Sequence record: MT446416.1
Reading direction: 5' to 3' (one strand)
Length of the DNA stretch: 64,000 bases
Origin: Escherichia virus TH47
Numbering within the stretch: position 1 is the stretch's first letter; every line of letters starts with the position of its first letter. Of the stretch, positions 38,809-59,028 are shown piece by piece. The position numbers and the translations under genes were made by a program. Below the pieces are notes generated by a model that was not told the DNA's origin, made no database searches, and was given only the letters and a program-made list of their open reading frames with translations.

Positions 38809-39951
38809 CTAAAAATCCTTTAGTACAATTTTCATGTACTTAATAAGAGTCTCTTTGTAATCGACTTTCTTATTGTTGTACATTGCAAAGGCCAAGCCCT
38901 GACGATTCAGTTCATTAGTTAAACACTCCTGAACCTTCTTAGCGAATTCCTTTCGCTCCAAGTGCTTGTGTTCCTTGACGAAGCTTTCAACTTCATCTTG
39001 TAAAGCATTATAGCACGAAAAGACTAGTTGTTCCATTCTTAATATCTTTTGAGTAGCATATTCGTCAGTACTGAACAACTGTTTTAAATCATCACTCGAA
39101 CCATTTAATACAGCTTCATATAAATGGGAATCGAATATAATACTGTCTTTCGTTAAATGCAAAGAACAATACCAGTCGGTTTTGATTTTGCACATTGTAC
39201 CATTATTTAGGATGCACACAAAACCTTCAATGTCAAGCATTTTCTTAACTTCTTCAACACTTTCTTTGAATGTAGTACGAACAGGGAAAGTGTAATGAAT
39301 ATCTTTACCTGTCATATTAGTACTGTACTGTGCAAGGCATGGAAACTTATTACGTAATGCAGAACCACATAATAGTTCACCACTCTTGCGATGGCGAACG
39401 TTTAGTACAAATAATTGTTCAACCTGGTATGGTAATACAATTCGGTACTCTGGACTTGTATACTCCAGATTAACAGTATAGCCCAAACGGTCTGCTTCGT
39501 CAATGTATTGATACAAATTTTGGTTCTCGGTGAGAAGACGAGTGCTGTTAATCGCATGGTCTGAATACAATGCAGTATGTGATTTACAACGAATCTCACC
39601 ATCATTATCACGGTAAGTACTGATCACTGAACCATCCAACTTAGGCATCACTACCGCAATGTCATCGCAGGTGGTATCAGCAGGGAACATTGTAGCAGGA
39701 TTCTCGTAAGCATTGAAGAACTTTTTCATAGTACGAGCAGCACAACGAATCATATTACCTTCTTCATCAATTTCCCACATAGATCCACGGGTTTCTAATG
39801 CATTGGGTTGCATGAAATCAGTATATGATGCTAGACGATAACTGAATACACGATACGTTCCACCAGCAGGACTTTTATGATCCACATAAAAGAAAGCCTC
39901 ACGGGTATTACATAAGTGCATTAAATCTTCATATATTTGTAAAAGGGTCAT
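38809..39951 (-). CDS. rnlA: RNA ligase 1 (T4 gp63-like)
   Basis: Adenylation motif MPKLDGSV; extended similarity to T4 Rnl1 as I recall it (FFY...SYRLASY...RG..WE, KIKTDWY.SLH, GSSDDLK). Confidence 0.9.
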   Translation of the reverse strand: MTLLQIYEDLMHLCNTREAFFYVDHKSPAGGTYRVFSYRLASYTDFMQPNALETRGSMWEIDEEGNMIRCAARTMKKFFNAYENPATMFPADTTCDDIAVVMPKLDGSVISTYRDNDGEIRCKSHTALYSDHAINSTRLLTENQNLYQYIDEADRLGYTVNLEYTSPEYRIVLPYQVEQLFVLNVRHRKSGELLCGSALRNKFPCLAQYSTNMTGKDIHYTFPVRTTFKESVEEVKKMLDIEGFVCILNNGTMCKIKTDWYCSLHLTKDSIIFDSHLYEAVLNGSSDDLKQLFSTDEYATQKILRMEQLVFSCYNALQDEVESFVKEHKHLERKEFAKKVQECLTNELNRQGLAFAMYNNKKVDYKETLIKYMKIVLKDF

Positions 39952-40256
39952 TTTATTACCTCTATATCTACATCTGTGCCATAGTAGGAAACGTAACCAT
40001 TATCTGACTTACATTGAATTGATAACTCTGATTCATAGTATGTTACTTTGATCACTGTTAGTACTTTTTCTTCAATTTCTCCCGTTAAATAATCCATTTC
40101 ACGAACACGAACGTTGGTTCCTTTTGGGAGTTCTTGTGCAATTTTATTAACAAGTTCAAAAGCAGCTTCTTCAAGTGTGTGCAACAATTGCAATCTATCT
40201 TGGATATTCATATTATTTCCACCAAGTTGTATCTCGACCACCAGACAAAGATTCAT
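39948..40256 (-). CDS. hypothetical protein
   Basis: 102-aa ORF. Confidence 0.5.
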   Translation of the reverse strand: MNLCLVVEIQLGGNNMNIQDRLQLLHTLEEAAFELVNKIAQELPKGTNVRVREMDYLTGEIEEKVLTVIKVTYYESELSIQCKSDNGYVSYYGTDVDIEVIK

Positions 40257-40902
40257 TGTACTGATGCCTGAAATTAGTATTTGGATTATTTGTCATTGTA
40301 CTAATAAAATCAAATTTAACATTCTCTTGAATGTAATTAATAACATTATCTTTAAATTTAATAGTACTGAAGTCTAAATCTAAATGTTCATACAATACCG
40401 GATGACAAAACTCATGTGTACGCAATGATGGCATGGTATCCTTAATGTATTGCACAGTGTTAATCATTGCATTATATTCAGGCATAGCACGCATCATCAT
40501 TAGCTGAAAGTGTTCTTCCTCTGACATTGATTCATCCAAATCAATAACGACTTCATCATTTTTAGAGTCAAATACTTTAATGTCACTCTTTGTTGGATCA
40601 AGCATAGCCCACTCTGGATACAGGCATGTTTTCCAAAAAGGATTATTGCACTGAAACATACTAATGAGATTTTGATCTTTATCAAAAATAGCAAATCCAA
40701 GATCCGAACTTGGCTGTACTTCACATACACAAATATCGTAAGGAGATTCTTCAGTACTGAATGATCCAACTACATTTGATATATGTGAATATGGAGTTTC
40801 TCTTGATTTTAATTCAAAGGCTCTCTCCATACGATTAACCTGTGGTTGTAATGTAATTACACCCCTCAGTACATATAAAATTCTATCTAAATCTTTAATC
40901 AA
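40213..40902 (-). CDS. FQ-motif family member (dispersed copy)
   Basis: SEEEHFQLMMM motif. Confidence 0.5.
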   Translation of the reverse strand: MIKDLDRILYVLRGVITLQPQVNRMERAFELKSRETPYSHISNVVGSFSTEESPYDICVCEVQPSSDLGFAIFDKDQNLISMFQCNNPFWKTCLYPEWAMLDPTKSDIKVFDSKNDEVVIDLDESMSEEEHFQLMMMRAMPEYNAMINTVQYIKDTMPSLRTHEFCHPVLYEHLDLDFSTIKFKDNVINYIQENVKFDFISTMTNNPNTNFRHQYNESLSGGRDTTWWK

Positions 40903-41477
40903 AATTCTATCCCCGTATCGGTTAATTTCGTTCCGTCCATATACTTAACAATTATTTCAATGCGTCGATCAGTACTCATTTTTTGAAGATCATTGTAGTA
41001 CAATTTAAATTCTTCAAAGAACTCAAGTGGTGGAATATCGTATAAAGTACTAATCTGGAAGTGCTCATGTAATCCAAAATCCAATATATCAATCTTAGGT
41101 ATAAGTCCATCGGCTGCTGCACCTTCTGGTGTACTGCTGTCTGCTACATAAAACATAGAATTACCATGACGCTGGATAACGAATACGCAATCATCTTCAC
41201 TTATATAAATCATATTTCCAAGGCATGGATCGTTATCACACCAATTGTCATGGACGAATTGATCAACTTGAAGTAAATCGTGTATAATTCCTCGACCACT
41301 ATCATCGATTCTAATATGTAAACCAGAATCACTTTTGCTCAACCAGCGGTATTTTGAATCACATCCTGATTCCATAACTGGATATTTTGAAAAATTCATA
41401 TCAGTACCATTATAAAACCAATCGTGCCACTCATTACGCATACTAATCAGCTTAGTACTTAATTCTAATACATTCAT
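40899..41477 (-). CDS. FQ-motif family member (dispersed copy)
   Basis: HEHFQISTLYDIPP motif, closest to 57529-58110. Confidence 0.5.
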   Translation of the reverse strand: MNVLELSTKLISMRNEWHDWFYNGTDMNFSKYPVMESGCDSKYRWLSKSDSGLHIRIDDSGRGIIHDLLQVDQFVHDNWCDNDPCLGNMIYISEDDCVFVIQRHGNSMFYVADSSTPEGAAADGLIPKIDILDFGLHEHFQISTLYDIPPLEFFEEFKLYYNDLQKMSTDRRIEIIVKYMDGTKLTDTGIEF

Positions 41478-41484
41478 TTTAGTT

Positions 41485-41787
41485 TTATCCTCTTAGTTTA
41501 ATAGTACTGGCTGGATAATCTACCATAGTACTATCTGGTAATCCTATACAGTAATAAGGAAAATATCCCATCTTTATATTAATACCAATTAACATTCCAG
41601 TTTTATATGAAGTATTAATTTCATAGTGGTCGTCTATATCAACTGCCAGTCCATATAAGGATATATTACAATCCTTGATGTATCGTTCAAAGATTTTATA
41701 CATTGATGGGTATAAAGTTCCATTGGATTCTTTTACTACATCAGCCAACAACTTTATAGTACTGTTAATTAAATCTATACTGAGCAT
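41485..41787 (-). CDS. hypothetical protein
   Basis: 100-aa ORF. Confidence 0.45.
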   Translation of the reverse strand: MLSIDLINSTIKLLADVVKESNGTLYPSMYKIFERYIKDCNISLYGLAVDIDDHYEINTSYKTGMLIGINIKMGYFPYYCIGLPDSTMVDYPASTIKLRG

Positions 41788-41800
41788 CTTTGTACCTGCG

Positions 41801-41838
41801 AAAAAAGACCAGCAAACGCTGGCCTATATTTTTATTTT
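41801..41838. terminator. terminator-like hairpin with T-runs on both sides
   Basis: GACCAGC-AAAC-GCTGGCC hairpin flanked by AAAAAA and TTTTTATTTT. Confidence 0.45.
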
Positions 41839-42116
41839 AACTCACTACAAGTGTATATACCGACAGTATCATCAGAAAATGTAATATAGAAATACACACC
41901 ACGGGTATCAAATGAAATTTCATCAATTGTACCTGTTTTATTCATAGTCTTATGTGTAACTTCTTTATTCACATAAAGGTATAAACTATTAAATTCCTTT
42001 GAATATTCATCAATCATATTGCTAAAATAATTGCAGTATGACATATCAGTATTATAAATTTCATTATACAAAGAAATATACTGGTAGAATGTCCAAGCAT
42101 GTGAGTTAAAATCCAT
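41832..42116 (-). CDS. hypothetical protein
   Basis: 94-aa ORF. Confidence 0.45.
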   Translation of the reverse strand: MDFNSHAWTFYQYISLYNEIYNTDMSYCNYFSNMIDEYSKEFNSLYLYVNKEVTHKTMNKTGTIDEISFDTRGVYFYITFSDDTVGIYTCSELK

Positions 42117-42125
42117 AACAGTTCC

Positions 42126-42854
42126 TTAGAAATATACCATACCCATCAATTCTGAATCTTCAGGGCGAGTATAACCTTGTTTCTTAACTTTAAAGTAGAA
42201 GGATTCATTATCTTCTAAATTATAACGTTTCTTTAAGCAACGGGTGTATGTTTGGCAATTAGGTGAAACCCATTCATAAACATGAACACCATTTTCATCA
42301 TAACCATTAATACTACAACGGTTTCCTTCGTGTTTCTTGAAGTTTTTACTCTTCTCAGTGAATTCTTTTACCGATGTAGTGGATGGTTTTTTATATTCAA
42401 ATGGAACTTCTGTTATACGAAAATAGAAATATTGGTCGTCTTCATCATATCCAACTAGCACTGTGTTAGTTTCACGTACATTGTAATGATTCTTACTTTT
42501 CAATTCATTTTCATATATATCTTTTAATACCTCATCGAATACAATATCACTTGCTGCATTTGGGTCTGAAACCCCACTAATACGGCGTTCAATAATAAAA
42601 TCGGTGAATTTGCGGTCTTCTGAAATATCTTCATTCATATAAAGACTTACGAACTTATCCTTGTATGTCTTTACGCTATATTGTTTGCTTTGAACTTCAC
42701 TATAAACATCAGCTAACATGTTAGCTTGTCCACATTGTATACCGCTAGATGAATATGCCGCAGCATGTTCAGCCATAACAGATGTTAACATTTGGAAATT
42801 TGCAATATTGAGTTGATTCGCCATTTCTGTTGCAAATTTTATATTATCTATCAT
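42126..42854 (-). CDS. hypothetical protein
   Basis: 242-aa ORF; contains no AGTACT. Confidence 0.5.
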   Translation of the reverse strand: MIDNIKFATEMANQLNIANFQMLTSVMAEHAAAYSSSGIQCGQANMLADVYSEVQSKQYSVKTYKDKFVSLYMNEDISEDRKFTDFIIERRISGVSDPNAASDIVFDEVLKDIYENELKSKNHYNVRETNTVLVGYDEDDQYFYFRITEVPFEYKKPSTTSVKEFTEKSKNFKKHEGNRCSINGYDENGVHVYEWVSPNCQTYTRCLKKRYNLEDNESFYFKVKKQGYTRPEDSELMGMVYF

Positions 42855-42879
42855 TTCACATTCCTTGTGTTTATGATTT

Positions 42880-43812
42880 TCATATTTTTAATTTATTTTC
42901 GAGTAAACATTTACATACATAATCAATAACAAGATTTATGTCTTGTAAATCAAATGTTTCAGTATACCCATCACCAAAATAATCCTTTGGCAATTTACTA
43001 CTATTTTTAAGCAGATTTAAAATATTATATTCTACACTTTTAATAACTTCGGTATTTCCAGTAAAATAATATAATTCCTCTACTATAAAATTAGTTTTTG
43101 ACCTAATACTAATTAGTCTTGATTTATCAATCTTTGTAGAAATACCAACTTTATATTTTATTAAAATATTTTGTTCATATATTCCTAAAATATATAATTT
43201 ACTTTCTTCTGGGATTGGTCTGATACAATTGCAGTTAAGAGATCCACATTTAACTCTACTATAATTAATATATTTGTCAAAATTACACGCTGTACAATAA
43301 AATCTAACCTTATATTGTGTACCACGGTATGTAGATTTATCCATATATATTGTATTTGAGTAATCTTTTATTTTATTCATAATAGTGTTATATGCTTCGT
43401 CGATATCTAACGGCATACAATATGATGAATGACATTTACAATATGAACCTCTAGACTTAACATCATGCACCGTCATATATCTTTCAAACGCACAATCGTC
43501 ACAATAAAATCTAGATTTGTTTTTTGTAGTTGTGAATGTGGAAATATCTAATTTTAATTTTGAATTAATTTCACCCAATTTATTATATAAAGTTTTAAAT
43601 GTGGGACAGTGACAAAATATTCCATTTTTGTACACATTCCTAACTATGATATTTTTACTAAACCCACATTCATCACAGAAAAAAGTTGATTTGTTTGATA
43701 TGGTAGTGTATGTTGTTCTATCCATTTTTACCGATGAACCAATTGAACTCAATTTTTCATCAACCAGTCTGAATACTTCAGAATCTGGCTTTTTACTTGG
43801 CACTTTACACAC
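42880..43812 (-). CDS. zinc-ribbon-repeat protein with C-terminal T5orf172-like (GIY-YIG-related) domain; putative homing-endonuclease-like nuclease
   Basis: Three F-x-C-x-x-C ... C-x-C repeats; C-terminus LYILGIY...KYKVGISTKIDKSRL...EYNILNLL...GDGYTETFDL resembles the T5orf172 domain; contains no AGTACT. Confidence 0.5.
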   Translation of the reverse strand: MCKVPSKKPDSEVFRLVDEKLSSIGSSVKMDRTTYTTISNKSTFFCDECGFSKNIIVRNVYKNGIFCHCPTFKTLYNKLGEINSKLKLDISTFTTTKNKSRFYCDDCAFERYMTVHDVKSRGSYCKCHSSYCMPLDIDEAYNTIMNKIKDYSNTIYMDKSTYRGTQYKVRFYCTACNFDKYINYSRVKCGSLNCNCIRPIPEESKLYILGIYEQNILIKYKVGISTKIDKSRLISIRSKTNFIVEELYYFTGNTEVIKSVEYNILNLLKNSSKLPKDYFGDGYTETFDLQDINLVIDYVCKCLLENKLKI

Positions 43813-43852
43813 TCCTTGTGTTAGTTATTGTTCCTCATCCAATATTATATCA

Positions 43853-44164
43853 CTACTTGAGCCATTGTCCCGCTTTGTAACAATAAAGATTCTCAAATTT
43901 AAAGTTCTCTATATCACATTCCTCACGTACTCGATTCTTGTTCCAGAATAAAATACGAATCCTTTCATAATCACGATAAACACTAATAATGCTTCTGTGT
44001 TTAGATTTATAATATTCTTTTACAATATCAAGATACATTGACCTAAGTAACGATTTCACTGGATAAGACAAATCCTGTGCCGTAGTAATAAAGTAAATCA
44101 TCTTCATTGTTTCAGCAATAAGAACTTCATTTGTTGTATTTGTCATTGTAATCCTTACATACAC
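43853..44164 (-). CDS. hypothetical protein
   Basis: 103-aa ORF. Confidence 0.45.
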   Translation of the reverse strand: MYVRITMTNTTNEVLIAETMKMIYFITTAQDLSYPVKSLLRSMYLDIVKEYYKSKHRSIISVYRDYERIRILFWNKNRVREECDIENFKFENLYCYKAGQWLK

Positions 44165-44309
44165 TATGTAAAGTAAATCCTAAACCAACACCAACAATTG
44201 GGAATAGTAAATTAACATACCATGTGTTCATTGTTAAAAAGGAATAAGCACCTGAAGCTGTCAGTACTGCAATAGAAAAAAGACTCCAGATAAAAAATAA
44301 TGCTCTCAT
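44127..44309 (-). CDS. small membrane protein
   Basis: 60-aa hydrophobic ORF. Confidence 0.35.
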   Translation of the reverse strand: MRALFFIWSLFSIAVLTASGAYSFLTMNTWYVNLLFPIVGVGLGFTLHSVCKDYNDKYNK

Positions 44310-44596
44310 AAAAATGTTACCTCGTTAGATGAGTAGTTACGATATATTTGTGAATTATGTTCCACACCATGAATTGTTATATGCCCGTTGTAGAAAAAAG
44401 TAATATCTACAACTTTGAGTTCTTTACGTTTTTTAGTACTGAAATATCTACCCACTAACGCAGCATATATATAATCCCTGTACTCTTGAGTAATGAATTT
44501 ATACATATTATGATTTGCACTACACTTTTCATCATAAGTATTAGTATATTCTTTCATCAGTAGAGCATATGTTTTTTGTATTAATATGATATTCAT
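44306..44596 (-). CDS. hypothetical protein
   Basis: 96-aa ORF. Confidence 0.45.
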   Translation of the reverse strand: MNIILIQKTYALLMKEYTNTYDEKCSANHNMYKFITQEYRDYIYAALVGRYFSTKKRKELKVVDITFFYNGHITIHGVEHNSQIYRNYSSNEVTFL

Positions 44597-44793
44597 CTGT
44601 AGTTTAATATTGAAATGGGAAGACTATATATATGTGCGTAAAGTTTATCAACTCTTTCCATATTCACTTTTAAAGTACTTCCAATACGACTGATGCTATC
44701 TATACGATAAAGCACGTCATTCAGCATCATTACGGTATCGGTGTAATCTTCACTAAGAGATTCAATGTAGATATCTTCAAGTTTCACATCCAT
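44593..44793 (-). CDS. hypothetical protein (start uncertain)
   Basis: The track ORF begins at a GTG at 44979 and would overlap the zinc-ribbon ORF; shortened to the internal ATG at 44793. Confidence 0.3.
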   Translation of the reverse strand: MDVKLEDIYIESLSEDYTDTVMMLNDVLYRIDSISRIGSTLKVNMERVDKLYAHIYSLPISILNYR

Positions 44794-44848
44794 GCGTGGT
44801 ATATCTAAATCCCTCAATAAACGCAGTGTTTGCACGATCAGTTCAGCT

Positions 44849-45049
44849 TTAGTAATGAATACGCTCACATGCCAGACAATAAATGCACTCAATGTCAGGT
44901 CGCCATGATTTATCGAAATCTTTGTGCTGTTCTTCAGTGTATTCCGCATCATCATTGATAGGAAAGAAATCCCCAGCACCAGAGGCCCAGTCTGAATCTA
45001 AACGGAAACGAGCTAATTGAGTACTGTTGCAATATGGACATTTATTCAA
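44849..45049 (-). CDS. small zinc-ribbon protein (TTG start)
   Basis: CPYC...CIYCLAC; no in-frame ATG, but the TTG has AAGGA 7 nt upstream. Confidence 0.35.
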   Translation of the reverse strand: MNKCPYCNSTQLARFRLDSDWASGAGDFFPINDDAEYTEEQHKDFDKSWRPDIECIYCLACERIHY

Positions 45050-45326
45050 AATTTATTCCTTCTAACTGATATACGTTTAATGAAAATGACCCACTATTAT
45101 TATCGCATCTGAAACACAGTGTTAAAGAACCATTATAACTCACGACATCCGTACATATACATTTTTCACCATTGGATATGATAGATTTTCCTATATATAA
45201 ATCTCTTACTATAGTACGGTAATGTTGCCATAAAAAATAATACACACTTTCATAGTACTCATCTTTTACATATGACAAGTATAAGAATTTATAAAATACT
45301 TGTATTTCCTTTAAGTTGTTTTTCAT
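45042..45326 (-). CDS. member 5 of a five-gene tandem paralog family (shared N-terminal M-x-N-x-x-IQFTYK-x-LY motif)
   Basis: MKNNLKEIQVFYKFLYLSY. Confidence 0.5.
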   Translation of the reverse strand: MKNNLKEIQVFYKFLYLSYVKDEYYESVYYFLWQHYRTIVRDLYIGKSIISNGEKCICTDVVSYNGSLTLCFRCDNNSGSFSLNVYQLEGINFE

Positions 45327-45600
45327 TCTCCAACTCCAGTAAATTTACACCAATCCAATCAACATCACTATCAGTACTTAATTCCAATCGTAGCTTACCG
45401 CTATGACTAACAATATCGCGGAATTTGTATATTTTATTATCACGAACTATACACAAATCATGGTAATATTCATGTAATTCATCCAAAAACTTTATCCATA
45501 CCGAACGATAGATTTCACCGTAGAGATATTCTCCAGCATCAACCGTAGCGTATTGGATATACAAAAATTTGTATGTGAATTGTATATCATTAATATTCAT
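45289..45600 (-). CDS. member 4 of the five-gene tandem paralog family
   Basis: MNINDIQFTYKFLYIQY. Confidence 0.5.
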   Translation of the reverse strand: MNINDIQFTYKFLYIQYATVDAGEYLYGEIYRSVWIKFLDELHEYYHDLCIVRDNKIYKFRDIVSHSGKLRLELSTDSDVDWIGVNLLELENEKQLKGNTSIL

Positions 45601-45610
45601 ATGTCAACTC

Positions 45611-45922
45611 TTATAGGTCCGTTAACTTCAAAACTTTGATCTCCATAAATTCCCTATCAGTTTTTTCAAGAAATTCTACATGGATAATACCTTGATAAGA
45701 TTTTACACCTGAATATTCAAATATGTCATCTCCATCAGTGTAAGTACTGTAATTCTTTTTTATATATTCAGCAATAGAATCTAAGTAATCATAGTAATTA
45801 TTAATAAATGGTGATTCTTTTGATTCGACATGTTCACCAATCTTCCCACTAAAAAGATACATGTCATACAAACCATATATATTTTTATACGTGAATTGAA
45901 CATCATTCAAATTTAATTTCAA
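45611..45922 (-). CDS. member 3 of the five-gene tandem paralog family
   Basis: MKLNLNDVQFTYKNIYGLY. Confidence 0.5.
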   Translation of the reverse strand: MKLNLNDVQFTYKNIYGLYDMYLFSGKIGEHVESKESPFINNYYDYLDSIAEYIKKNYSTYTDGDDIFEYSGVKSYQGIIHVEFLEKTDREFMEIKVLKLTDL

Positions 45923-46179
45923 GGGAATATCTCCAGAGGAACACTCGTAAATCCAAAATCAGTGTAGAACTGTACCTCTACTTTACCATCGAGCTTAATG
46001 ATTATATCTGAAAATTCTGCATGATCGTTGTTGATAATTACAGTACTGAATTTTTCTTTAATCCTCTCACGCACAGTATTAATCATTTCAATACATGTAT
46101 TTTCTAAAAATATACTATTATTTTTATCTGCTAGGTCACGAATGCACTTGAATGTTAATTGGAAATCTTTATAATTCAT
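45919..46179 (-). CDS. member 2 of the five-gene tandem paralog family
   Basis: MNYKDFQLTFKCIRDL. Confidence 0.5.
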   Translation of the reverse strand: MNYKDFQLTFKCIRDLADKNNSIFLENTCIEMINTVRERIKEKFSTVIINNDHAEFSDIIIKLDGKVEVQFYTDFGFTSVPLEIFP

Positions 46180-46445
46180 ATATTCACCAAATCAACAGAG
46201 AATAAGTCGTTATCAAATTTATATGAAAGTACTAATCTACCATCAAAACTATCGACACTAAGTATCTTTCGTTTTTTCCCATTAATGAAAATTTCAGTAT
46301 CAATAAAATACTCACGTAATTCTTCTAGGTAATTTGACCATAATTTATGAGTAAACGCATATTTATTAATTGTGTTAGTACTTCTGTGATTATGGTGTAA
46401 TTTAAATAATTCCATATAAGTGAATTGTATATGTTTGTAATTCAT
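46176..46445 (-). CDS. member 1 of the five-gene tandem paralog family
   Basis: MNYKHIQFTYMELFKL. Confidence 0.5.
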   Translation of the reverse strand: MNYKHIQFTYMELFKLHHNHRSTNTINKYAFTHKLWSNYLEELREYFIDTEIFINGKKRKILSVDSFDGRLVLSYKFDNDLFSVDLVNI

Positions 46446-46454
46446 ATTTCCCCT

Positions 46455-46484
46455 TACAAAAATAGCCCGAACTTATGTCGGGCT
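46455..46484 (-). terminator. rho-independent terminator
   Basis: AGCCCGA...TCGGGCT hairpin followed on the minus strand by ATTTTTGT. Confidence 0.5.
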
Positions 46485-46491
46485 ATATGTG

Positions 46492-47109
46492 TTATTCATC
46501 GTCATCATCATCGTCGTCGAGATCTAGGTAAATGCCATCATCACCATCATCGAAGTACTCAACCACTACACCAGGAATGTTCAGTGCTGTGAACATCGCA
46601 TCATATTTTTCATCAGATGGGATAAGAACAAACTCATCAATACTTTGAATTTCAGGCATACGATCTTCAGGAATACCCATTTGCAACAAGGATTGGATGA
46701 TTTTTTCCTTGTATTCTAGGAACTTCTCTTCTGATTCGAAATCCATAATAAGTTGTGCTACATAACCATCTTCGTTACCAAATGCGATTGACATTTGTGC
46801 ATCAGTACCGACATATGACCATGTACGCTTGCCAGTATTTTTCTCAATGAAGTTCTGAATTTCAAGAACGATTTCATGACGAGAACTATTGGCAATGTTG
46901 TTAAGGTTAGCAACACCAGCAATAATTTCTGAACTATCATTGGATTCTTCGAATGTACCATAGTCACCTAATACATATTGAACACCATCACAATGTAATG
47001 CATATGCATAATCCAAATCAGCAAGTGAATCACACTTACCACGGATTGGGCGTAGGGAAAGCCCTAGGCGAAGATAACGAAAGTATGTATTAGTATTTGT
47101 ATTTGTCAA
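46492..47109 (-). CDS. hypothetical protein with poly-Asp/Glu C-terminal tail
   Basis: C-terminus ...YFDDGDDGIYLDLDDDDDDDE; start taken as the TTG at 47107-47109 with AAGGAG 7 nt upstream; the first in-frame ATG is far downstream. Confidence 0.4.
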   Translation of the reverse strand: MTNTNTNTYFRYLRLGLSLRPIRGKCDSLADLDYAYALHCDGVQYVLGDYGTFEESNDSSEIIAGVANLNNIANSSRHEIVLEIQNFIEKNTGKRTWSYVGTDAQMSIAFGNEDGYVAQLIMDFESEEKFLEYKEKIIQSLLQMGIPEDRMPEIQSIDEFVLIPSDEKYDAMFTALNIPGVVVEYFDDGDDGIYLDLDDDDDDDE

Positions 47110-47377
47110 CGTAATGCTCCTTAACAATATAAAAGTAGTTGCTGTTGTTGTCAAAAAAGATGACTAATCCTTTGTAGACATTTACACCAATCTTGATTTG
47201 GCATATTTTATTCGATTTACAAGCCTCAGTCAATAACATCTTGTGCTCTTTACTGAAAGTGTGGAATAGTGGTTTTACATGCCACATCTCCACACCATCT
47301 AGTACTGGAAAATGTTCACTGAATTTGATCATTGATTCTTGTAAAAAATAACCTGTTAGATTCGAATCATCAGACAT
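47090..47377 (-). CDS. hypothetical protein
   Basis: Start moved to the first ATG (47375-47377); the track start is TTG. Confidence 0.4.
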   Translation of the reverse strand: MSDDSNLTGYFLQESMIKFSEHFPVLDGVEMWHVKPLFHTFSKEHKMLLTEACKSNKICQIKIGVNVYKGLVIFFDNNSNYFYIVKEHYVDKYKY

Positions 47378-47663
47378 GTAAGTTCGCCAGGAAGTCAATT
47401 ACTTCTTCATGTGTTAACTTATCACTACGCTCTAGAACATTGATGATGAATGGTGTTTGACTATATAATTCAGCCAGAAACGCAACTTCATCAGATGTAT
47501 AAGAATATCCCATAGGAACAACTTGTGCAGTCCAGTTTCCTAAAGTTTTGTTTGCAATGATTGCAACCACCGTATTACCTTTGAATTCAACATGGATTGA
47601 ACGGAAACCCGAATCCTCATTCTGATCCCAAAGTACTGGGTTAGTTTTAAACAGTACTGACAT
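47370..47663 (-). CDS. hypothetical protein
   Basis: 97-aa ORF. Confidence 0.45.
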   Translation of the reverse strand: MSVLFKTNPVLWDQNEDSGFRSIHVEFKGNTVVAIIANKTLGNWTAQVVPMGYSYTSDEVAFLAELYSQTPFIINVLERSDKLTHEEVIDFLANLHV

Positions 47664-47665
47664 AG

Positions 47666-48199
47666 TTATTTCCTCATGTATTTTATTACATCTTCAAATA
47701 GTTTAGTTTTCAGTGCATCATCATTACCAGGTAGAAAAGTACTGAAGCTATTAAAATCTTCATTCTTGGCAAACTCACGCATCTGTGTGGAACTGTAGCG
47801 ACTTACATTTCGGTCAATTCCAGCTTGAACTGCCTTGATTGAACAAAAATTATATAACTTCCCATTGTACGTGTCAAGCGTTTTTTGGAATGGTTCAAGT
47901 CTGTCTGAACCACATATGAAAAGAACATCTAAGTACTTTCCATCCAGTTCTCTCATTATATCAAACAGATTATCTTCTGTATAGATATTTTCTTGTACAG
48001 ATGGGTAAAATCCTTCTGTATAGTACATTTTCAGTTCAGGAGGTAATGGGTTTTTGACGGCATCAGTACTGGTACTAAGGAATATTTTCAAATCAGCATT
48101 GTACTGTTCTTGTAGTGCTTGGGCTTTTTCAAACACTAAACCATGTCCATTGTGGACTGGGTTACATCTCATGAATGTCACTACGCATGTTTCTTTCAT
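47666..48199 (-). CDS. HxGH-motif nucleotidyltransferase (cytidylyltransferase-like fold; possible NMN/NaMN adenylyltransferase)
   Basis: FMRCNPVHNGH near the N-terminus matches the (H/T)xGH signature; downstream SSTQMR resembles the ISSTxxR motif. Confidence 0.5.
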   Translation of the reverse strand: MKETCVVTFMRCNPVHNGHGLVFEKAQALQEQYNADLKIFLSTSTDAVKNPLPPELKMYYTEGFYPSVQENIYTEDNLFDIMRELDGKYLDVLFICGSDRLEPFQKTLDTYNGKLYNFCSIKAVQAGIDRNVSRYSSTQMREFAKNEDFNSFSTFLPGNDDALKTKLFEDVIKYMRK

Positions 48200-48720
48200 A
48201 TGTTCTTCATCACCTGACCAAGAGATTTAAGATAGTTGATTTTAGCTGGAGTCAAATACTTATCCAGTACTATTAAACAACTAGGGAATGGAGCACTGTC
48301 CGTCTTTTTATCTGGTTCTTCAGGGATACCGAATTTTAAGCGACCTTTTATAAAACAAATACAGTCGCATTCTTTTGATGCATAGTTCTGAAACGCAACC
48401 GTATCGGTACGTGAAGGTACAAGTATCAGTACTGTAGCACCTTTGTTATATGCATCAACTGCCTTAGATAACCACGTTTTCAAATCACTGTACGGTGGGT
48501 TGAGCCACACGATATTGTTTCCCCAGTCCTGTTCAAGTGAATTGTCTTCTGGTGTAAAGAACTTATCACACAATGCTGTTTCTTTAACACATGCTGCATC
48601 TAGTGTAAATTCCCAGAGTTCATCCAAATCTTCAAAGAAATCCTTTGGAGTAGTCCAGTTATCTTTTCCAGTACTGAAATGTACTGATTGTTTTTTCTTC
48701 GAAGCATCCTTCTTCGACAT
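48196..48720 (-). CDS. phage-type DNA N6-adenine methyltransferase (small Dam-like)
   Basis: NPPYS catalytic motif (the DPPY/NPPY family signature of N6-adenine MTases); about 170 aa. Confidence 0.65.
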   Translation of the reverse strand: MSKKDASKKKQSVHFSTGKDNWTTPKDFFEDLDELWEFTLDAACVKETALCDKFFTPEDNSLEQDWGNNIVWLNPPYSDLKTWLSKAVDAYNKGATVLILVPSRTDTVAFQNYASKECDCICFIKGRLKFGIPEEPDKKTDSAPFPSCLIVLDKYLTPAKINYLKSLGQVMKNI

Positions 48721-48736
48721 ACATAATTTCCTTTGA

Positions 48737-49282
48737 TTATAGACAGTTAAGTACTATGTCATCAAAAGTACTACTGTCAATGTTGTATTCATATAAAAAT
48801 TTAAAATGTGATCCATAACGCATCATCAGATTAAACTCTTCTTCAGTATTAAATTTGTAATCATGAAGAGTTTCAAGGGTACATGTTAAACCTAAAAACT
48901 CAATAATTTCTGATGTTACATCATTTCCTGAATTGAAGTATTTAACCCAAACACATTTTCCTTGTGGGTTGAATTTTCTATATTCTCCTTCTAGTTCTCC
49001 ATTGACGATATGTGCTTTCGCACTGATTAGATTATTACTATAACGCTCTTCGTAGTAGTTCCCATAACGAGCTTTAAGAATTGTAGGCTTCTTGGTTGGG
49101 AATAACTTAATGGAAGTTAATTCAAAACCGCACTGCAACTCTTTGATGTACGAAATACATCCCTTTTCTTTAATCACAACAAAACCAGTAAAATTCTCCT
49201 GGTCTTGGTTCTGATTGTCTGAATCAACAAATTCTAGTGTTTTATAAGTGACGCTTTTAGATTTTTTAATAAATGACATCAT
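48737..49282 (-). CDS. FQ-motif family member (degenerate motif TEEEFNLMMRY)
   Basis: Start moved to the ATG pair at 49277-49282 with AGGA Shine-Dalgarno; the track start at 49369 is TTG. Confidence 0.45.
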   Translation of the reverse strand: MMSFIKKSKSVTYKTLEFVDSDNQNQDQENFTGFVVIKEKGCISYIKELQCGFELTSIKLFPTKKPTILKARYGNYYEERYSNNLISAKAHIVNGELEGEYRKFNPQGKCVWVKYFNSGNDVTSEIIEFLGLTCTLETLHDYKFNTEEEFNLMMRYGSHFKFLYEYNIDSSTFDDIVLNCL

Positions 49283-49962
49283 TATTCCTATGGAAACATC
49301 AATGACTGTCCATGGCGTTGACTTCATCAACACCAGTCGAATTATACACGCTTCGCATGTATAATTCAACGAAAGTACTATGATTTGTTTTAATTAATAT
49401 TGACGGGGTTTGCTTGAGCATATTTCATCCCCCCGCAGGGGAAAGAACAAAAAAGTTTGACGCTGGTGGCCTTCACATAGTTCATATCACGAATTCTCTT
49501 ACGAGGCGAAAGCGGGTTGCTCTGTTTCTCTCTATCGCGGTTCTTGTAGCAACGGTCGTCGGTCTTAAACATCCCGACACATAATACAAATACCATATGA
49601 CCAGTACTTGTATTTGATTTCACGAATTTTGGACGCAACTATTTTGTATAAATTACGACCGCAAATTTCTCATGAAATCTCCCTTAGATAATTGGTAAGG
49701 TGCGATCCTTATATGTCTATCGAGGAACTCTCTTTATCCTATTGGAGTTCTTTATACAGCCGCATTGCCGTGAGTGGTTCAAACTATGCCATCATCTAAC
49801 GGGTTTCATTTGCTGTTCGTACTGAAAGGACTACTCATCTACCCTCTACTTTTCGAGTGGATTAGGCTTCAATCATTTCCATATGGAACCTTTCAGGATT
49901 AAAAAAAGGTGACAACATATTCTGCTGTCACCTTACATTATATCATAAACTTATGGTATGTC
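49283..49962 (-). other. ORF-free, GC-richer intergenic island of about 680 bp (candidate structured RNA, regulatory or origin region)
   Basis: No ATG-initiated ORF with a Shine-Dalgarno on either strand; local GC about 40-55 percent versus about one-third elsewhere; palindrome TTCCATATGGAA at 49877-49888; CCCCGCAGGGG hairpin; no tRNA T-loop found. Confidence 0.3.
49901..49932 (-). terminator. rho-independent terminator
   Basis: GGTGACA / TGTCACC 7-bp stem followed on the minus strand by TTTTTTT; 30 nt after the stop of the 49963-50826 gene. Confidence 0.6.
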
Positions 49963-50826
49963 TCAGTTGTATTCTGTTTTTTCAGTGAAATTCGTTAAGA
50001 TATCTGCACTTAAGCTTCTCATAACCTCAATCTTACTTGGCATGAACCTGTGCTTGTTTTTTACATACAACTCATCATCTTCAATGAAAGATGTGAACAT
50101 GAATACCATATCTTCACGTGGAATTGAGAGAATATTACAGTTTTCATTTTCAGTAACAGGGGAATCCCCGTAGTACTTAGAGAATGCAGTACTTTGACGA
50201 CCGATTATGATAGAATTTCGGATTAGAAAATTACTACAGTACTGAAAATCTTTGTAGTACTTGTCAAGGATATATGGCATTATCGCTTCTTTCACTTCTT
50301 CATATCCATTTGAACTATCAATTTCAGTACAATAATCTTCTCGGTCTTTTTTCCCTCGATGATTATCAAACTCGTACTCAAAGAATAAATTTTTATTTGA
50401 TGAATCTGAATCATTTAAACCAACTGATCCACTATAGTATGAATTTCGTGAATTTCTATCCTTCATTCGATCATCCGGGCATGATGCATACATAGAAATG
50501 TCATGTGTTGACGTACCGATATAAATTTTCTTAGTAATGTGATTGTACGCGATGTAATCATAATCTTGTACTCCAGTGAGCATTAACTGGAACATCAATT
50601 CATCAGGAACATCAATTAACGGGTACTCAAACTTCGAATATCTACTACGACAGAAATTCTTTTCAAATGCTCGGTGTGCGATGAAATCTTTTAGATTTGT
50701 AATAGATTCATGCTCATGTGTATTACTGGTGCGTACATTGACATTAGTAGACGAGCAATACCCTTCAGATTCTTCTGCGTAGACATAAAAACCCTTACTG
50801 TAGTCAACGATTAGATAAAGTTTCAT
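49963..50826 (-). CDS. FQ-motif family member (287 aa)
   Basis: PDELMFQLMLTG motif. Confidence 0.55.
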   Translation of the reverse strand: MKLYLIVDYSKGFYVYAEESEGYCSSTNVNVRTSNTHEHESITNLKDFIAHRAFEKNFCRSRYSKFEYPLIDVPDELMFQLMLTGVQDYDYIAYNHITKKIYIGTSTHDISMYASCPDDRMKDRNSRNSYYSGSVGLNDSDSSNKNLFFEYEFDNHRGKKDREDYCTEIDSSNGYEEVKEAIMPYILDKYYKDFQYCSNFLIRNSIIIGRQSTAFSKYYGDSPVTENENCNILSIPREDMVFMFTSFIEDDELYVKNKHRFMPSKIEVMRSLSADILTNFTEKTEYN

Positions 50827-53536: not shown

Positions 53537-54037
53537 TTAGGTCACAGCTTTGTATTTCTCCATTGCTTCGGTGATATTCAATACTGCTTGCGGTACGTCA
53601 CTTTTGTTGTATGCAGTGGTTAGTTTTTCCATGTTATTGAGAAGACTAAGAAACAATGGAAGTACTTCTGCATTGTCACTGAAGTTGCAATCATTGACAG
53701 TACTCAATTGGAATAACTCACCCGCATCAACATTGAGTGTGTTGTATTCTTTAACAATGTTTTCTTCAGTATTGAAGATGTAGAATACAGTCCCCATGTG
53801 GTGTAAGTATACACCAGTTTCATTCTGAATATGACATGGGGTGATTACAATTGCTGTGTTATCAATATTATTTACTATTGTCAAACGCAGACTATGTAAC
53901 CCAAAGATTACAGTACAATCCTTTGTACTGTGTTGGATCTGGTCACTAGTAAAGGAAGACCCACTATATATTTTAGATCCATTTAGTATTTCTTTGATAA
54001 TTTTAAATGAATACTTCATCGAATTAGTTAAAAGCAT
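53537..54037 (-). CDS. FQ-motif family member
   Basis: GELFQLST. Confidence 0.55.
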   Translation of the reverse strand: MLLTNSMKYSFKIIKEILNGSKIYSGSSFTSDQIQHSTKDCTVIFGLHSLRLTIVNNIDNTAIVITPCHIQNETGVYLHHMGTVFYIFNTEENIVKEYNTLNVDAGELFQLSTVNDCNFSDNAEVLPLFLSLLNNMEKLTTAYNKSDVPQAVLNITEAMEKYKAVT

Positions 54038-54437
54038 GAACTTTACCTTTAAGTAAATTAATTAATGTTCGCATAGATTCAGTACTGACAGTACCAAAAT
54101 CAACACCTAAGCACTCGTATTGAAAGAACTCAATAGAATCAATTGAGTCCAAAGGAATATCAACAACCTGATTCCCTATACCAGACATAGTAACATTGCT
54201 TTTATTAATCGTCAAGAAGTTTTTTGTATAAGTGTTAAATTTTAGAGAAATCGCGTCGGGGTGCTTTGTAACAATGCAGTACTGGGAACCGTAGACATAT
54301 AGTACTTTACTTTCACTAAGATACGTTTTAAAAAAATGAATCCCATTGAAGTATTTCTCATTGGCGACCATCGCCGCGATTAGTTCATCTGTTGTTGTTA
54401 ACCTTGTTTCGTTCTTCGTTAAACTGTTGAAAAGCAT
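54024..54437 (-). CDS. FQ-motif family member
   Basis: SIEFFQYE; AAGGT Shine-Dalgarno. Confidence 0.5.
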   Translation of the reverse strand: MLFNSLTKNETRLTTTDELIAAMVANEKYFNGIHFFKTYLSESKVLYVYGSQYCIVTKHPDAISLKFNTYTKNFLTINKSNVTMSGIGNQVVDIPLDSIDSIEFFQYECLGVDFGTVSTESMRTLINLLKGKVHAFN

Positions 54438-54858
54438 AGAATACTACCTTAACCATTTGTAGTGTTTCAGACATTACTTCTGATGAAAATTCAACATCAT
54501 TGAATTTCAGCATAGTGTTCTGTGTAAAGAATGTTGCTTCTAAGTCTTCCAGATTGAAAGGTTCATCAAACAAATTAGTACTGAACATGTCAGTCTTCTT
54601 CTTGTATGTGAACAGGAATTTGGAATTATAACGAAGAACTACTTCATCTTTATTGACCAAAATACGTGCAATGTTCTGACGTGTCAATGTGGTAATGTTT
54701 AAATTGAACACGTTCTTGCGTGTTTCAGTGATATCAACAAAATACCCATCTCCCTGATGGATATTACATCGTACATCCAACCCTTTCTGTACTGTATTGA
54801 ACAGTGCATCTTGAATAAAATAATTTGCTGTATCGATGTTTCCTAAAATGTCTAACAT
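54385..54858 (-). CDS. probable FQ-motif family member (degenerate motif)
   Basis: EATFFTQNT. Confidence 0.45.
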   Translation of the reverse strand: MLDILGNIDTANYFIQDALFNTVQKGLDVRCNIHQGDGYFVDITETRKNVFNLNITTLTRQNIARILVNKDEVVLRYNSKFLFTYKKKTDMFSTNLFDEPFNLEDLEATFFTQNTMLKFNDVEFSSEVMSETLQMVKVVFYAFQQFNEERNKVNNNR

Positions 54859-55370
54859 AACTTCTCCTTGATTGCTGTCATATTTAGAAGAAATTCTTCA
54901 AGCAATTCCTCTGTAACATACTCAACATACCAGAATATCATAATATCTTTTGAAAGTCGAGTATTCTTAAAAATATCTACTAACTCTTTGTAGTACTCAA
55001 GATCATATACATCTTTTATAATTAGTGAGTACTGAAATAGTGATTCTTCAGTTAACTTAAATTCTGGATATAGTAAGTCATTAAATTCTAATGATTCTGA
55101 TTGTACTTTTATTTTAGTGAAGTCATTTGTTAATCCACCATTACATCCATATAATGCAGCGTAATTCACGAACTTGGCTTTTGGATTAAAATCAAGAACA
55201 GTTTCACCATTATATGACAATCGGTGGAACGCCGTGAACTTTGTAATTTGCCACGGTAGCTTAATACCTAAGTCATTTATGTCTTTATTATTGTACATAA
55301 GAACAGTGAATATTTCAGCAATCTTCAATAATAATTTAGTACGTGCTAGTACTGTCATAGGTTCAATCAT
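54852..55370 (-). CDS. FQ-motif family member
   Basis: EESLFQYS. Confidence 0.55.
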   Translation of the reverse strand: MIEPMTVLARTKLLLKIAEIFTVLMYNNKDINDLGIKLPWQITKFTAFHRLSYNGETVLDFNPKAKFVNYAALYGCNGGLTNDFTKIKVQSESLEFNDLLYPEFKLTEESLFQYSLIIKDVYDLEYYKELVDIFKNTRLSKDIMIFWYVEYVTEELLEEFLLNMTAIKEKLC

Positions 55371-55783
55371 TATACACCTTCATATTCATCAAGGAAATCT
55401 TCGATGATCATTTCTGCATCATCCATATGCATAGCATCTACTTCAACAATGCGAACCTTAGATGCATCCCAAATCATATAGCTAGGAACTGTATCTGGTT
55501 CGTAATCGTTCTTGTACTGAACAGCATCGTAACCCTTAGAATTACAATGTTCAATCAGCCCACGCCACTCATCATCACTACCTAAATCTTCCCATAGAAG
55601 CACGTTATCAACATCAACTTCTAATGTATGCAAGTATACTGTATTAGCGTCAACAACGTTCAGTGGGCTTCTCAGCTTGCGTAATGCAGCTTCTAAAGCA
55701 CTGTGCTTGCCTCCCATATGAAGGCCACCATACGGGATATAAAAGTTATCAATTTTTACAGTACTCGCATGATACAGTTTCAT
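55370..55783 (-). CDS. hypothetical protein inside the array (no FQ motif seen)
   Basis: 137-aa ORF. Confidence 0.5.
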   Translation of the reverse strand: MKLYHASTVKIDNFYIPYGGLHMGGKHSALEAALRKLRSPLNVVDANTVYLHTLEVDVDNVLLWEDLGSDDEWRGLIEHCNSKGYDAVQYKNDYEPDTVPSYMIWDASKVRIVEVDAMHMDDAEMIIEDFLDEYEGV

Positions 55784-55792
55784 AATTCATTC

Positions 55793-56377
55793 CTATTTCA
55801 GTACTTTGACCAGGGCTTTAACCGCTGTTTCAAGTTGTGCAAAGTCGTTGATTGTAAGATAATGAATACCCAATGTACTCATTTCTGAATCTATTTTACT
55901 ATACAAATCGAACATGTCAAGTAGATATTGATATGTATATGACTCCGATGACACGCATGATTCTTGAAATAGACGTTCTTCCATATCATTTACTACTTCG
56001 TCATTCACGTCTCGAATCACACCATCTTTGTATGTGTAGTAAATCTCATCCCATTCATCTGATAAGTGGAATAGTAAAGGCTTACCATTAAACATCTCAA
56101 GGTCATATGCATTGATTTCACTCAATAACATATCATCAGGATCAGGTGTGAAATCGAATTGGGCGAGTGACGAACCATCATAATCTTTAAGGAATACACC
56201 AATAGCATTCAATTTAACTTCGCCATAATTGCCATTCTTGAACTTCACACGAATATTAATATCAATGTTTTGAACAGTATCATCATCTTGGAACTGATAA
56301 TCAATTTTATACTTTTCCCAAAGTTTTTTAATATCTTTGAAGTACTTAATTTTACTTTCTATTTCTTTAAAGTTCAT
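55793..56377 (-). CDS. FQ-motif family member
   Basis: EERLFQES. Confidence 0.55.
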   Translation of the reverse strand: MNFKEIESKIKYFKDIKKLWEKYKIDYQFQDDDTVQNIDINIRVKFKNGNYGEVKLNAIGVFLKDYDGSSLAQFDFTPDPDDMLLSEINAYDLEMFNGKPLLFHLSDEWDEIYYTYKDGVIRDVNDEVVNDMEERLFQESCVSSESYTYQYLLDMFDLYSKIDSEMSTLGIHYLTINDFAQLETAVKALVKVLK

Positions 56378-56969
56378 CTGGAACCACCATCTCTTGTATG
56401 TTCTTGCATTTTTTCATTGCACAATTAGTATTTAAAATGATAGAGTACTTATGTAATGATTTAATTTTATAACACTCATTAAGTACTGAAATGATGCCCC
56501 ATAACTCTTCTACATCAATAGTGATAGGTTCACTAGTACTAAGTTGCATTAGTGCTGCTTCCACATCATCTTTGTTATTGATTTTGAACTGTATGCCACG
56601 TTTCAGTATTTTGGTTTTTGGATTATACTCTGCCATTACATCACCTTCAGGGTAACCCTCGTGTAATAATAATGTTGTCTCATAATCTCCACAATTGAAA
56701 TTAATTTCATCATAGTCAGGAACACAAATCATTCCTTCACCATATTGATTATCTACTGATTCGATTGTTAAAATACGCTGATGTTCATTACTCAGGATAA
56801 TAGAATCGTGCCAGTACTGCGTAGTGAATTTACTACGTTTCTTTTGACAGCACATACTTGACATGGGGCCATACTTTTTATATAGGGACTTCTTGAATGC
56901 TATCGCACCAGGAGCCACCTTAATAACTTCTCGAATTAGGTCAATAGCTTCTTGATAACTTTTTCTCAT
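56367..56969 (-). CDS. FQ-motif family member (variant)
   Basis: EAALMQLST; start moved to the ATG at 56967-56969 (ATGA overlap with the upstream stop). Confidence 0.45.
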   Translation of the reverse strand: MRKSYQEAIDLIREVIKVAPGAIAFKKSLYKKYGPMSSMCCQKKRSKFTTQYWHDSIILSNEHQRILTIESVDNQYGEGMICVPDYDEINFNCGDYETTLLLHEGYPEGDVMAEYNPKTKILKRGIQFKINNKDDVEAALMQLSTSEPITIDVEELWGIISVLNECYKIKSLHKYSIILNTNCAMKKCKNIQEMVVPDEL

Positions 56970-57517
56970 TTGTCGTACCCATATAAAATATGATCTAGTG
57001 TGCATTGTACTTCTTCATGGAAGAACAACGGGTAAATTTGTATCAATTTTTCTTTAAGTTCAAGTGAATGACATAGTTCCAGTGATTTAATACAATCTTC
57101 GTATTGAACTAAGCTATGTAATGTACTTAACTGAAAATGTTGTTCTTCAGAGTAAGCTAAATCATATACCAAATTATCATTTAATAGATTTGATTTAGTT
57201 GAAGGATCAAGTACTGTGTTGCTATGACCTACCCAGAAAAAAGCATTGGTGTTCATATTATTACAACCCCAACCTGTCCCCATTTTCTGGTGAATAGCAA
57301 AGACACAACTATCATAGAGATTAATACCAAGACGTTCTTCGTTGACATAAATCGTAACACCATCGATTGTCATGGTTATTTGGAAACGCATTGAACCTTC
57401 ACTTCGTGAACGTGCACAGAAGCCAAGATAACGGTTAATAATTGTATTGATTTTATCTGCCCATCCTTCCACATCTTTGGATGCACATAATTTAAAAAGA
57501 TCATGACTTTGGTTCAT
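56966..57517 (-). CDS. FQ-motif family member
   Basis: EEQHFQLST. Confidence 0.55.
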   Translation of the reverse strand: MNQSHDLFKLCASKDVEGWADKINTIINRYLGFCARSRSEGSMRFQITMTIDGVTIYVNEERLGINLYDSCVFAIHQKMGTGWGCNNMNTNAFFWVGHSNTVLDPSTKSNLLNDNLVYDLAYSEEQHFQLSTLHSLVQYEDCIKSLELCHSLELKEKLIQIYPLFFHEEVQCTLDHILYGYDK

Positions 57518-57528
57518 GTAGTTCTCCG

Positions 57529-58110
57529 TTAATCAAGCATAAGTGGCATCATCGCCCATATCTTTTTCATAATCATATCTTCAGTAAAAACAAACGTTTT
57601 AGGTGCAGTATATGATATTGACAACCCAAATGGAAGTACGATTGCATCATCAATTATATTATGAATATCAAACCATGTTTTTACACAATCATATGGTGGA
57701 AGTTCATGTATTGTACTTAACTGAAAGTATTGTTCTTCGCCAAAAGTACTGCAATCAATATCACAAATTTTAGTGAAATGATGATTCCATTTAGATATAA
57801 TACTGTTTTTATTATTGGACATATTAGTTCTATGCATGAAACCATTTCTGCTAATATAATTTGATATTGCGTTTTCTTCAATATCATTGCTTATTTTAAA
57901 ATTCATGTAAAAGTTGTAGTACACACTCGACGATTCTTTGAATTTTAAATGAAAATAACGATTGTTATTAATTTCCATTTCAATACAAAACACATCTGAA
58001 TCAAAACGATTAAACTTGTAATCGTTGTCTTCAGGTAGAGTCTGTAATTTTTTCATAACACCAAGCATAGGGTGCACTAAGCTTCTAATAAAATCATTAG
58101 TTATTTTCAT
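57529..58110 (-). CDS. FQ-motif family member
   Basis: EEQYFQLST. Confidence 0.55.
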   Translation of the reverse strand: MKITNDFIRSLVHPMLGVMKKLQTLPEDNDYKFNRFDSDVFCIEMEINNNRYFHLKFKESSSVYYNFYMNFKISNDIEENAISNYISRNGFMHRTNMSNNKNSIISKWNHHFTKICDIDCSTFGEEQYFQLSTIHELPPYDCVKTWFDIHNIIDDAIVLPFGLSISYTAPKTFVFTEDMIMKKIWAMMPLMLD

Positions 58111-58603: not shown

Positions 58604-59028
58604 GTTTTGTCTCTTAATGAAAGAATATACTTAGTATAAACTGAAACTGAAATATGATTATATTTCATCATTAATTTATACACATAAGAAGCTAGTACTA
58701 AATCGTAAATTAATTTAGTATCATACAGTACTCCGTATTGTAAAGCAAGTGAATCAATATCATCTTTACTTTCAATATCCAGAAATGTACCGAAAATTGT
58801 AGTACCGTGAAGATGAAAAGTGGAATTAATGCAATCAATGCATTGATTGTCCAACAGTGTAGATGCAGATGCCCTTTGTGAATCCCAAATTGTCAGTACA
58901 TGTTTTTCATCAACAAACAAATCTATCCATGTTTTGTGTCGTTGCTTTTTTTGTGTTTTATAATTTTCTGGATTTGAAAGTGTAGTGTCAATTATATCCC
59001 ATATGTATAAGCATTCATCTCTTGTCAT
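58600..59028 (-). CDS. hypothetical protein inside the array (motif weak or absent)
   Basis: 142-aa ORF. Confidence 0.5.
   Translation of the reverse strand: MTRDECLYIWDIIDTTLSNPENYKTQKKQRHKTWIDLFVDEKHVLTIWDSQRASASTLLDNQCIDCINSTFHLHGTTIFGTFLDIESKDDIDSLALQYGVLYDTKLIYDLVLASYVYKLMMKYNHISVSVYTKYILSLRDKT

Follow-up and report, generated by a model that had tools for sequence, protein, structure and literature searches.

Dispersed FQ-motif genes of an Asteriusvirus jumbo coliphage: probably a satellite pair of true family members beside rnlA and two unrelated core genes around a candidate structured RNA

Expansions of paralogous genes have been described in several jumbo phages. About 10% of the gene products of RaK2 are paralogous (PMC3622015), CBB has 22 paralogous open reading frames (ORFs) (PMC5259590) and Bacillus phage G carries an approximately 35-copy zinc-ribbon expansion (PMC7824862); RaK2 and other genome papers name their paralogues in general terms only (PMC3622015, PMC5259590). 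A family of this kind, here termed the FQ family after its Phe-Gln motif, is encoded in a 64,000-nucleotide stretch of Escherichia virus TH47 (MT446416.1), which is referred to below as the window. Like the described expansions, the FQ family consists of many tandem, co-oriented and fast-diverging copies of a small protein in one phage clade; unlike those of RaK2, CBB and phage G, it has one sharp motif and a conserved satellite beside the RNA ligase gene rnlA. It is neither named nor described in the RaK2, CBB and phage G papers, and is thus an undescribed multigene family, which makes up about 5% of RaK2-like jumbo phage genomes. Besides the main array, a sequence-only reading had assigned to the family four dispersed proteins, encoded at 40213-40902, 40899-41477, 48737-49282 and 49963-50826 and named below by their first coordinate. 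Very probably, 40213 and 40899 are members located in the rnlA satellite, and 48737 and 49963 are unrelated core genes around a candidate structured RNA. This assignment fixes the limits of a large undescribed family, reveals an old conserved satellite and removes two false members that would distort a family profile or phylogeny.

By nucleotide identity, the phage of the window is an Asteriusvirus jumbo coliphage of the PBECO4/121Q group. A megablast search with window positions 40000-51000 matched 58 phage records. Escherichia phage EC.P1 ranks first (97.3% identity, 98% of the query covered), and PBECO4, 121Q and further jumbo phages of the genus Asteriusvirus, each of about 350 kb, come next. 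The minus strand carries almost all genes in this part of the genome. All four candidate ORFs were confirmed on this strand together with the peptides quoted for them, and the motif of each is kept in the orthologues of that protein. The ORF 48737-49282 begins at the annotated start and is enclosed in a longer TTG ORF (48737-49369); relatives annotate the same gene. The ratios of nonsynonymous to synonymous substitution rates (dN/dS) against 121Q are 0.15 for 40213, 0.55 for 40899, 0.14 for 48737 and 0.18 for 49963; all four candidates are real genes under purifying selection.

In the alignments, the FQ block is the only feature conserved throughout the family, whose proteins of about 120-230 amino acids (aa) are very divergent. 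Mean column identity among 15 aligned array proteins is 19%, with an invariant Gln column and a nearly invariant adjacent Phe. When 86 members from Asteriusvirus and RaK2 were anchored on FQ, the motif read [TS]-E(70%)-E(70%)-x-[LY]-F(98%)-Q(100%)-[YLN]-S(82%)-[TL]-[ILV]-[YH], preceded by 35-152 residues and followed by 32-88; the residue after the Gln is Y in 33%, L in 22% and N in 12% of these members. The main tandem array (53537..63663, minus strand) runs beyond the window end and includes 15 members in the window that are significant by hidden Markov model (HMM) search, as well as weak members at 58600-59028, 60177-60740 and 61893-62435. Array genes overlap or abut in a single orientation. 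Their median identity to phage A4 is 32%, compared with 57% for neighbouring genes, and their dN/dS is modestly higher (0.22 vs 0.16, P=0.048).

The dispersed candidates were scored with an HMM of the 15 array members, the check proposed in the sequence-only reading, and it divided them in two. Among 186 window ORFs, 40899 scored at an expect value (E) of 5.5e-4 and 40213 at 6e-3; 48737 reached 0.93 and 49963 was unlisted at E<=10. For calibration, 15 HMMs, each lacking one array member, were used to rank about 170 ORFs. The left-out array members scored at E 1.6e-6 to 1.0, with 13 of the 15 below 0.1 at rank 7 or better, and the ranks of the candidates were 1-7 for 40213, 2-7 for 40899, 28-163 for 48737 and 29-168 for 49963. 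In an iterative HMM search over five loci with reversed-sequence decoys, 40213 was the first of the four to be recruited (1.1e-5, against 0.16 for the best decoy), followed by 40899 (2e-5); 48737 and 49963 were never recruited.

Pairwise and profile-profile comparisons gave the same division. BLASTP aligned 40213 with 56966-57517 at E=8e-5. In hhalign, the probabilities for 40213 and 40899 were 80% (E 1.4e-5) and 68% (E 5e-5) against the 56966-57517 group and 70% and 73% against a family profile free of dispersed candidates, with E across both comparisons of 1.4e-5 to 4e-5 for 40213 and 3e-5 to 5e-5 for 40899. For 48737 and 49963, orthologue-group comparisons gave 0.3-0.8% and 0.7-1.1%, respectively, where about 60 unrelated groups peak at 2-10%. 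The maxima against 87 single members were 67% (40213), 56% (40899), 8% (48737) and 1.7% (49963), and against 40213 directly, 48737 aligned over 13 columns and 49963 over 14.

On profile evidence, then, 40213 and 40899 are true FQ-family members. The 192-aa protein 40899 (40899..41477, minus strand; motif HEHFQISTLYDIPP) has both the motif and the architecture of the family, with E-H-F-Q-I-S-T-L-Y-D followed by a C-terminal tail of 53 aa. The likeness noted earlier between HEHFQISTLYDIPP and EEQYFQLSTIHELPP of 57529-58110 is borne out. The best profile matches of 40213 and 40899 are the 56966-57517 and 57529-58110 groups. In the 229-aa protein 40213 (40213..40902, minus strand; motif SEEEHFQLMMM), S-E-E-E-H-F-Q-L is present but is followed by M-M-M instead of S-T-[ILV], and the tail of 98 aa slightly exceeds the 32-88 of the family.

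The two member genes form a pair (40213-41477), with 40213 the nearer to the ligase gene, directly upstream of rnlA (38809..39951, minus strand), which encodes RNA ligase 1 and is a conserved anchor downstream of the satellite cluster; its position is syntenic, and it is annotated as an RNA ligase, in EC.P1, 121Q, A4, RaK2, Munch and Hallingskeid. Outside Asteriusvirus, tblastn with 40213 found homologues in Hallingskeid (31%, E 1e-19), EJP2 and Munch/7t3. In Salmonella phage Munch and Erwinia phage Hallingskeid, the homologue likewise lies immediately upstream of rnlA and is preceded by two or three further genes for proteins of about 180 aa. The positional orthologues of 40213 are CPT_Munch_103 and Hallingskeid CDS0608, which share its FQLMM variant within EDEHFQLMM. 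With an HMM built without any dispersed member, Munch_103 (EDEHFQLMML) scored at 1.4e-7 and Hallingskeid 0608 (EDEHFQLMME) at 3.7e-5, and the neighbours Munch_100, Munch_102 and Hallingskeid 0609 at 4e-6, 6e-6 and 4e-7, respectively. Because these rnlA-adjacent homologues score as members, the pair at 40213-41477 is a conserved satellite older than the genus.

To judge from this synteny, the satellite cluster predates the split of several genera and is not a recent spread. The view that the family has spread through the genome was thus overstated: its only dispersed site in the window is this one conserved satellite. RaK2 has no satellite cluster between ORF459 and rnlA. The second gene, 40899, was found by tblastn in only 27 Escherichia and Salmonella phage records, which represent part of Asteriusvirus, and is absent from JNE01; this limited distribution, together with its array kin at 56966 and 57529, marks it as a younger or often-lost member. 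In Hallingskeid, a family member also lies directly after the cytidylyltransferase gene (7024-7566 of locus L006; HMM E=4e-6), where the window has none, and satellite positions therefore vary between lineages.

The other two genes belong to a different context. 48737 (48737..49282, minus strand; 181 aa, with a EEEFNLMMRYGSHFKF block) is flanked by the RNA island and the Dam methyltransferase gene, and 49963 (49963..50826, minus strand) on the far side of the island encodes 287 aa, compared with 120-230 aa in the family. Both are core genes of RaK2-like phages and occur as one copy each with fixed synteny in RaK2, Munch, Hallingskeid and Asteriusvirus. In this block, the 287-aa gene is followed by about 700 bp free of ORFs, the gene of about 180 aa, a Dam DNA methyltransferase gene (48196-48720, minus strand) and a cytidylyltransferase-like gene (47666-48199, minus strand); the last two, which are annotated in 121Q, A4, RaK2, Munch and Hallingskeid, are anchors of the synteny. 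Neither 48737 nor 49963 thus shows the multi-copy, fast-diverging and clade-variable gene content of the family.

Their motifs also differ. In 48737, FN occupies the place of FQ in all 7 orthologues, which come from five phage lineages, whereas the family Gln is present in 100% of 86 members. In a 17-sequence alignment, the FQ of 49963 falls within LIDxPDxxxFQxMxxGxxDxDYxxYN, with an invariant HxHE and an invariant Cys upstream, so that the full signature reads HxHE...C...LIDxPDxxxFQxMxxGxxDxDYxxYN; RaK2, K64-1, Munch, Hallingskeid and EJP2 encode orthologues of 49963. D-E-L-M-F-Q-L-M is invariant, no S-T follows, and 209 residues stand after the motif, compared with 32-88 in the family. By these comparisons, 48737 and 49963 are not members, and their likeness to the family is confined to a predicted helix-start motif of about 13 residues. 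Sequence searches of the PDB with the profiles of both proteins gave no match. As for side observations at this block, phage A4 has an extra 204-aa gene, A4_405 (26710-27324 of locus L003), between Dam and the 48737 orthologue, to which it is 14% identical.

Several observations weigh against so clean a division. Two array members reach just E of about 1 in the leave-one-out HMMs, and the best pairwise hhalign probability of several core groups is below 10%; the tests are weak in so divergent a family, and very remote homology of 48737 and 49963 is therefore possible. In addition, the motif match falls in the best-conserved block of both proteins. The block with FQ is the most conserved one of 49963, and all 17 homologues keep FQ, which, by this alignment, exceeds what a random match would predict. 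Because the matches fall in best-conserved blocks, a small probability is retained both for remote homology and for a shared functional motif.

Homology of all four proteins, with 48737 and 49963 diverged past detection outside the motif, would fit the retention of the motif in the orthologues of both, the barely detectable scores of some true members and the FQLMM form of 40213, which is intermediate in that it resembles EEEFNLMMR and ELMFQLML. It is nevertheless highly improbable, since no HMM or hhalign test lifts 48737 or 49963 above background and their alignments span 13-14 columns, 48737 lacks a Gln that is otherwise fully conserved, the motif of 49963 lies 209 aa from the C-terminus inside a different signature, and both, in contrast to the array, are core genes that evolve slowly and occur in single copy.

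The matches of 48737 and 49963 are, in our judgement, rather likely to be pure chance, given a loose motif and an AT-rich genome with a Glu/Phe/Leu/Met-rich proteome. When 111 non-family ORFs were shuffled, a strict array-derived pattern gave 1 match against 0.15 expected (P=0.14) and a loose pattern 2 against 0.38 (P=0.06), so the motif-level matches are not clearly beyond chance; overall, 0.15-0.45 matches were expected and 1-2 observed, with patterns that were defined after the hits had been seen. A further conserved FQ look-alike, 52006-52863 (minus strand), lies beside the array and reads LYTFQFELGF (LYTFQSELLF in RaK2 ORF441, 26759-27652 of locus L008). It aligns on the motif, fails with an hhalign probability of only 1%, and shows that the motif criterion over-calls easily. 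The point on the other side is that an arbitrary position would less often fall in the best-conserved orthologue block, as both matches do.

An acidic-x-x-F-Q/N-hydrophobic block might instead be a short functional motif used independently, so that the proteins would be linked by function and not by ancestry. Such a motif might serve for docking to a single partner from phage or host, or might be cut by a Gln-specific protease like 3C or TEV (tobacco etch virus). The 3C site is LEVLFQ/GP and that of the TEV protease (NIa, nuclear inclusion a) is ENLYFQ/S, with the cut at the slash. The FQ motif presumably resembles these in that an acidic residue precedes the aromatic-Gln pair by four to five positions, which we take as a lead and not as a test. 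F and Q are the sole near-invariant residues at mean column identities of 11-19%, the homologues of 49963 all keep FQ, and the sequence is EVLFQ in one member and EEGYFQG in RaK2 members. Unlike the 3C and TEV sites, the FQ family mostly has Y, L or N after the Gln (67% of members) and not a small residue, and the motif is predicted, in low-confidence models, to be helical and not an exposed linker. Matches to the motif outside the family are compatible with chance (P 0.06-0.14), and no protease or partner was identified in the window, which is only part of the genome. A shared short motif is therefore improbable, and the division into two satellite members and two unrelated core genes is preferred.

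The sequence-only reading had two family copies flanking the ORF-free island at 49283-49962; 48737 and 49963 do flank it, but neither is a family copy. The island itself is conserved at the DNA level in very distant jumbo phages, and indels in relatives disrupt the 82-aa ORF that it contains. An invariant TGATATAAT box and long invariant blocks are present in two alignments, one of 7 syntenic copies and one of 11 copies, and compensatory double changes occur at 29 of 95 predicted pairs in the former and 31 of 63 in the latter, including a long-range helix. The segment 49376..49930 (minus strand), preceded by the TGATATAAT box, thus looks like an undescribed multi-copy structured non-coding RNA of about 550 nt. 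By pattern scan, 121Q has two further copies and RaK2 one more, which follows a sigma factor gene; there are at least three per Asteriusvirus genome and two in RaK2, and metagenomic viral contigs also carry them. 48737 and 49963 are conserved neighbours of the RNA at one locus only. Rfam 15 gave no match to the candidate RNA even at E<=1, and literature searches found no description of it. This RNA is probably a more interesting object of the interval than the question of family membership. Since the second RaK2 copy follows a sigma factor gene, 49963 was also considered as a diverged sigma factor, an idea that was rejected with an hhalign probability of 0.2%.

In RaK2, an array at ORF412-439 is syntenic with that of the window and holds 25 HMM-significant members with a cleaner EE-x-x-FQYSTLY motif. 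There are 27 such members in the EC.P1 locus and 17 in the window, plus a few weak ones; the earlier estimate of at least 25 members thus holds for a whole genome but not for the window. Among 1.84 billion representative proteins, a profile search matched only 16, all of them Asteriusvirus orthologues, and two array-profile searches of a 5.8-billion protein collection found 13 and 19 proteins. As the wider second array profile was too diluted to recover the RaK2 members, no deep alignment was available for modelling. The array also encloses two non-family genes, at 54385-54858 and 55370-55783 (minus strand), which are 41.5% and 60.4% identical to RaK2; the array genes flanking them mostly have no RaK2 match or just 21-28% identity. 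Neither of the two matched Pfam, and they look like fixed anchors within a fast-evolving array.

In PHROGs, the four candidates match phrog_32531, phrog_37163, phrog_16210 and phrog_15199 end to end (E 1e-78 to 1e-154), all annotated as 'unknown function'. The four candidates and four scanned array members each fall in a separate PHROG, so that this resource links none of them, although phrog_12674 weakly bridges two array members (E of about 1e-3). The family is thus invisible to Pfam and NCBIfam and fragmented in PHROGs, and a proper model could be built from the motif logo and the list of members as its seed.

The role of the family may be proposed only tentatively. It is possible, although doubtful, that the family is a fast-evolving panel of intracellular binders for host interaction or counter-defence with a common helical module. 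The proteins would be soluble, intracellular and non-virion, and would be expressed from polycistronic operons. A variable N-terminal helix and beta region might provide diversified target recognition, while the acidic-capped FQ helix would nucleate a common C-terminal helical module or dock that module to a shared partner. In an AlphaFold2 model of the array member 61339-61896, an N-terminal helix is followed by a beta meander, the motif at a helix start and more helices. Array proteins have no hydrophobic segment, and their median isoelectric point (pI) is 4.9, compared with 5.4 in neighbours; a DNA-mimic-like, highly acidic or membrane-protein role was rejected on these values. In phage phAPEC6, none of gp378c-gp439c is among the 62 virion proteins (PMC7247149), and internal or ejection virion proteins of the phiKZ/T4 type were likewise rejected because of this absence.

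A number of results weigh against the proposed role. The confidence of the AlphaFold2 models is low, with a predicted local distance difference test (pLDDT) score of 48.5 for 61339-61896 and of 50.6 for 49963-50826, both models being used for rough secondary structure only, and Foldseek found no PDB match below E=1 for either. Pfam, NCBIfam and PADLOC scans gave no match for the four candidates or for array members, PHROGs places each array orthologue group in a separate family of unknown function, and literature searches found neither a description of the FQ family nor a transcriptome. A scan for sigma-70 promoters showed no enrichment over shuffles. A different proposal, which we regard as very improbable, is that the E-E-x-x-F-Q helix start is a portable module for one phage or host factor, common to at least 27 array and satellite proteins and the 287-aa gene; a docking site, a degron and a Gln-specific cleavage site are candidates. 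If it were true, a single pathway would include the array, the 287-aa core gene and perhaps also the RNA.

Other loci of the window show further paralogy and a likely insertion. At 44306-46445 (minus strand), five or six tandem ORFs, each for about 86-103 aa and sharing an N-terminal 'QFTYK' region, make up a second, small paralogue family (pairwise BLASTP E 5e-7 to 4e-4). An ORF of 310 aa at 42880-43812 (minus strand), which contains repeated Cys-rich units, lacks orthologues in 121Q, A4, JNE01 and RaK2; an 'endonuclease' is annotated in the matching interval of vB_Ec-M-J, and the ORF is likely a mobile insertion of the homing-endonuclease type. Near the start of the window, the ORFs at 1025-3754 and 4371-7067, each for a protein of about 900 aa, and the 195-aa ORF at 3771-4358 (all on the minus strand) are paralogous, with 28-32% identity and E values down to 1.5e-35.

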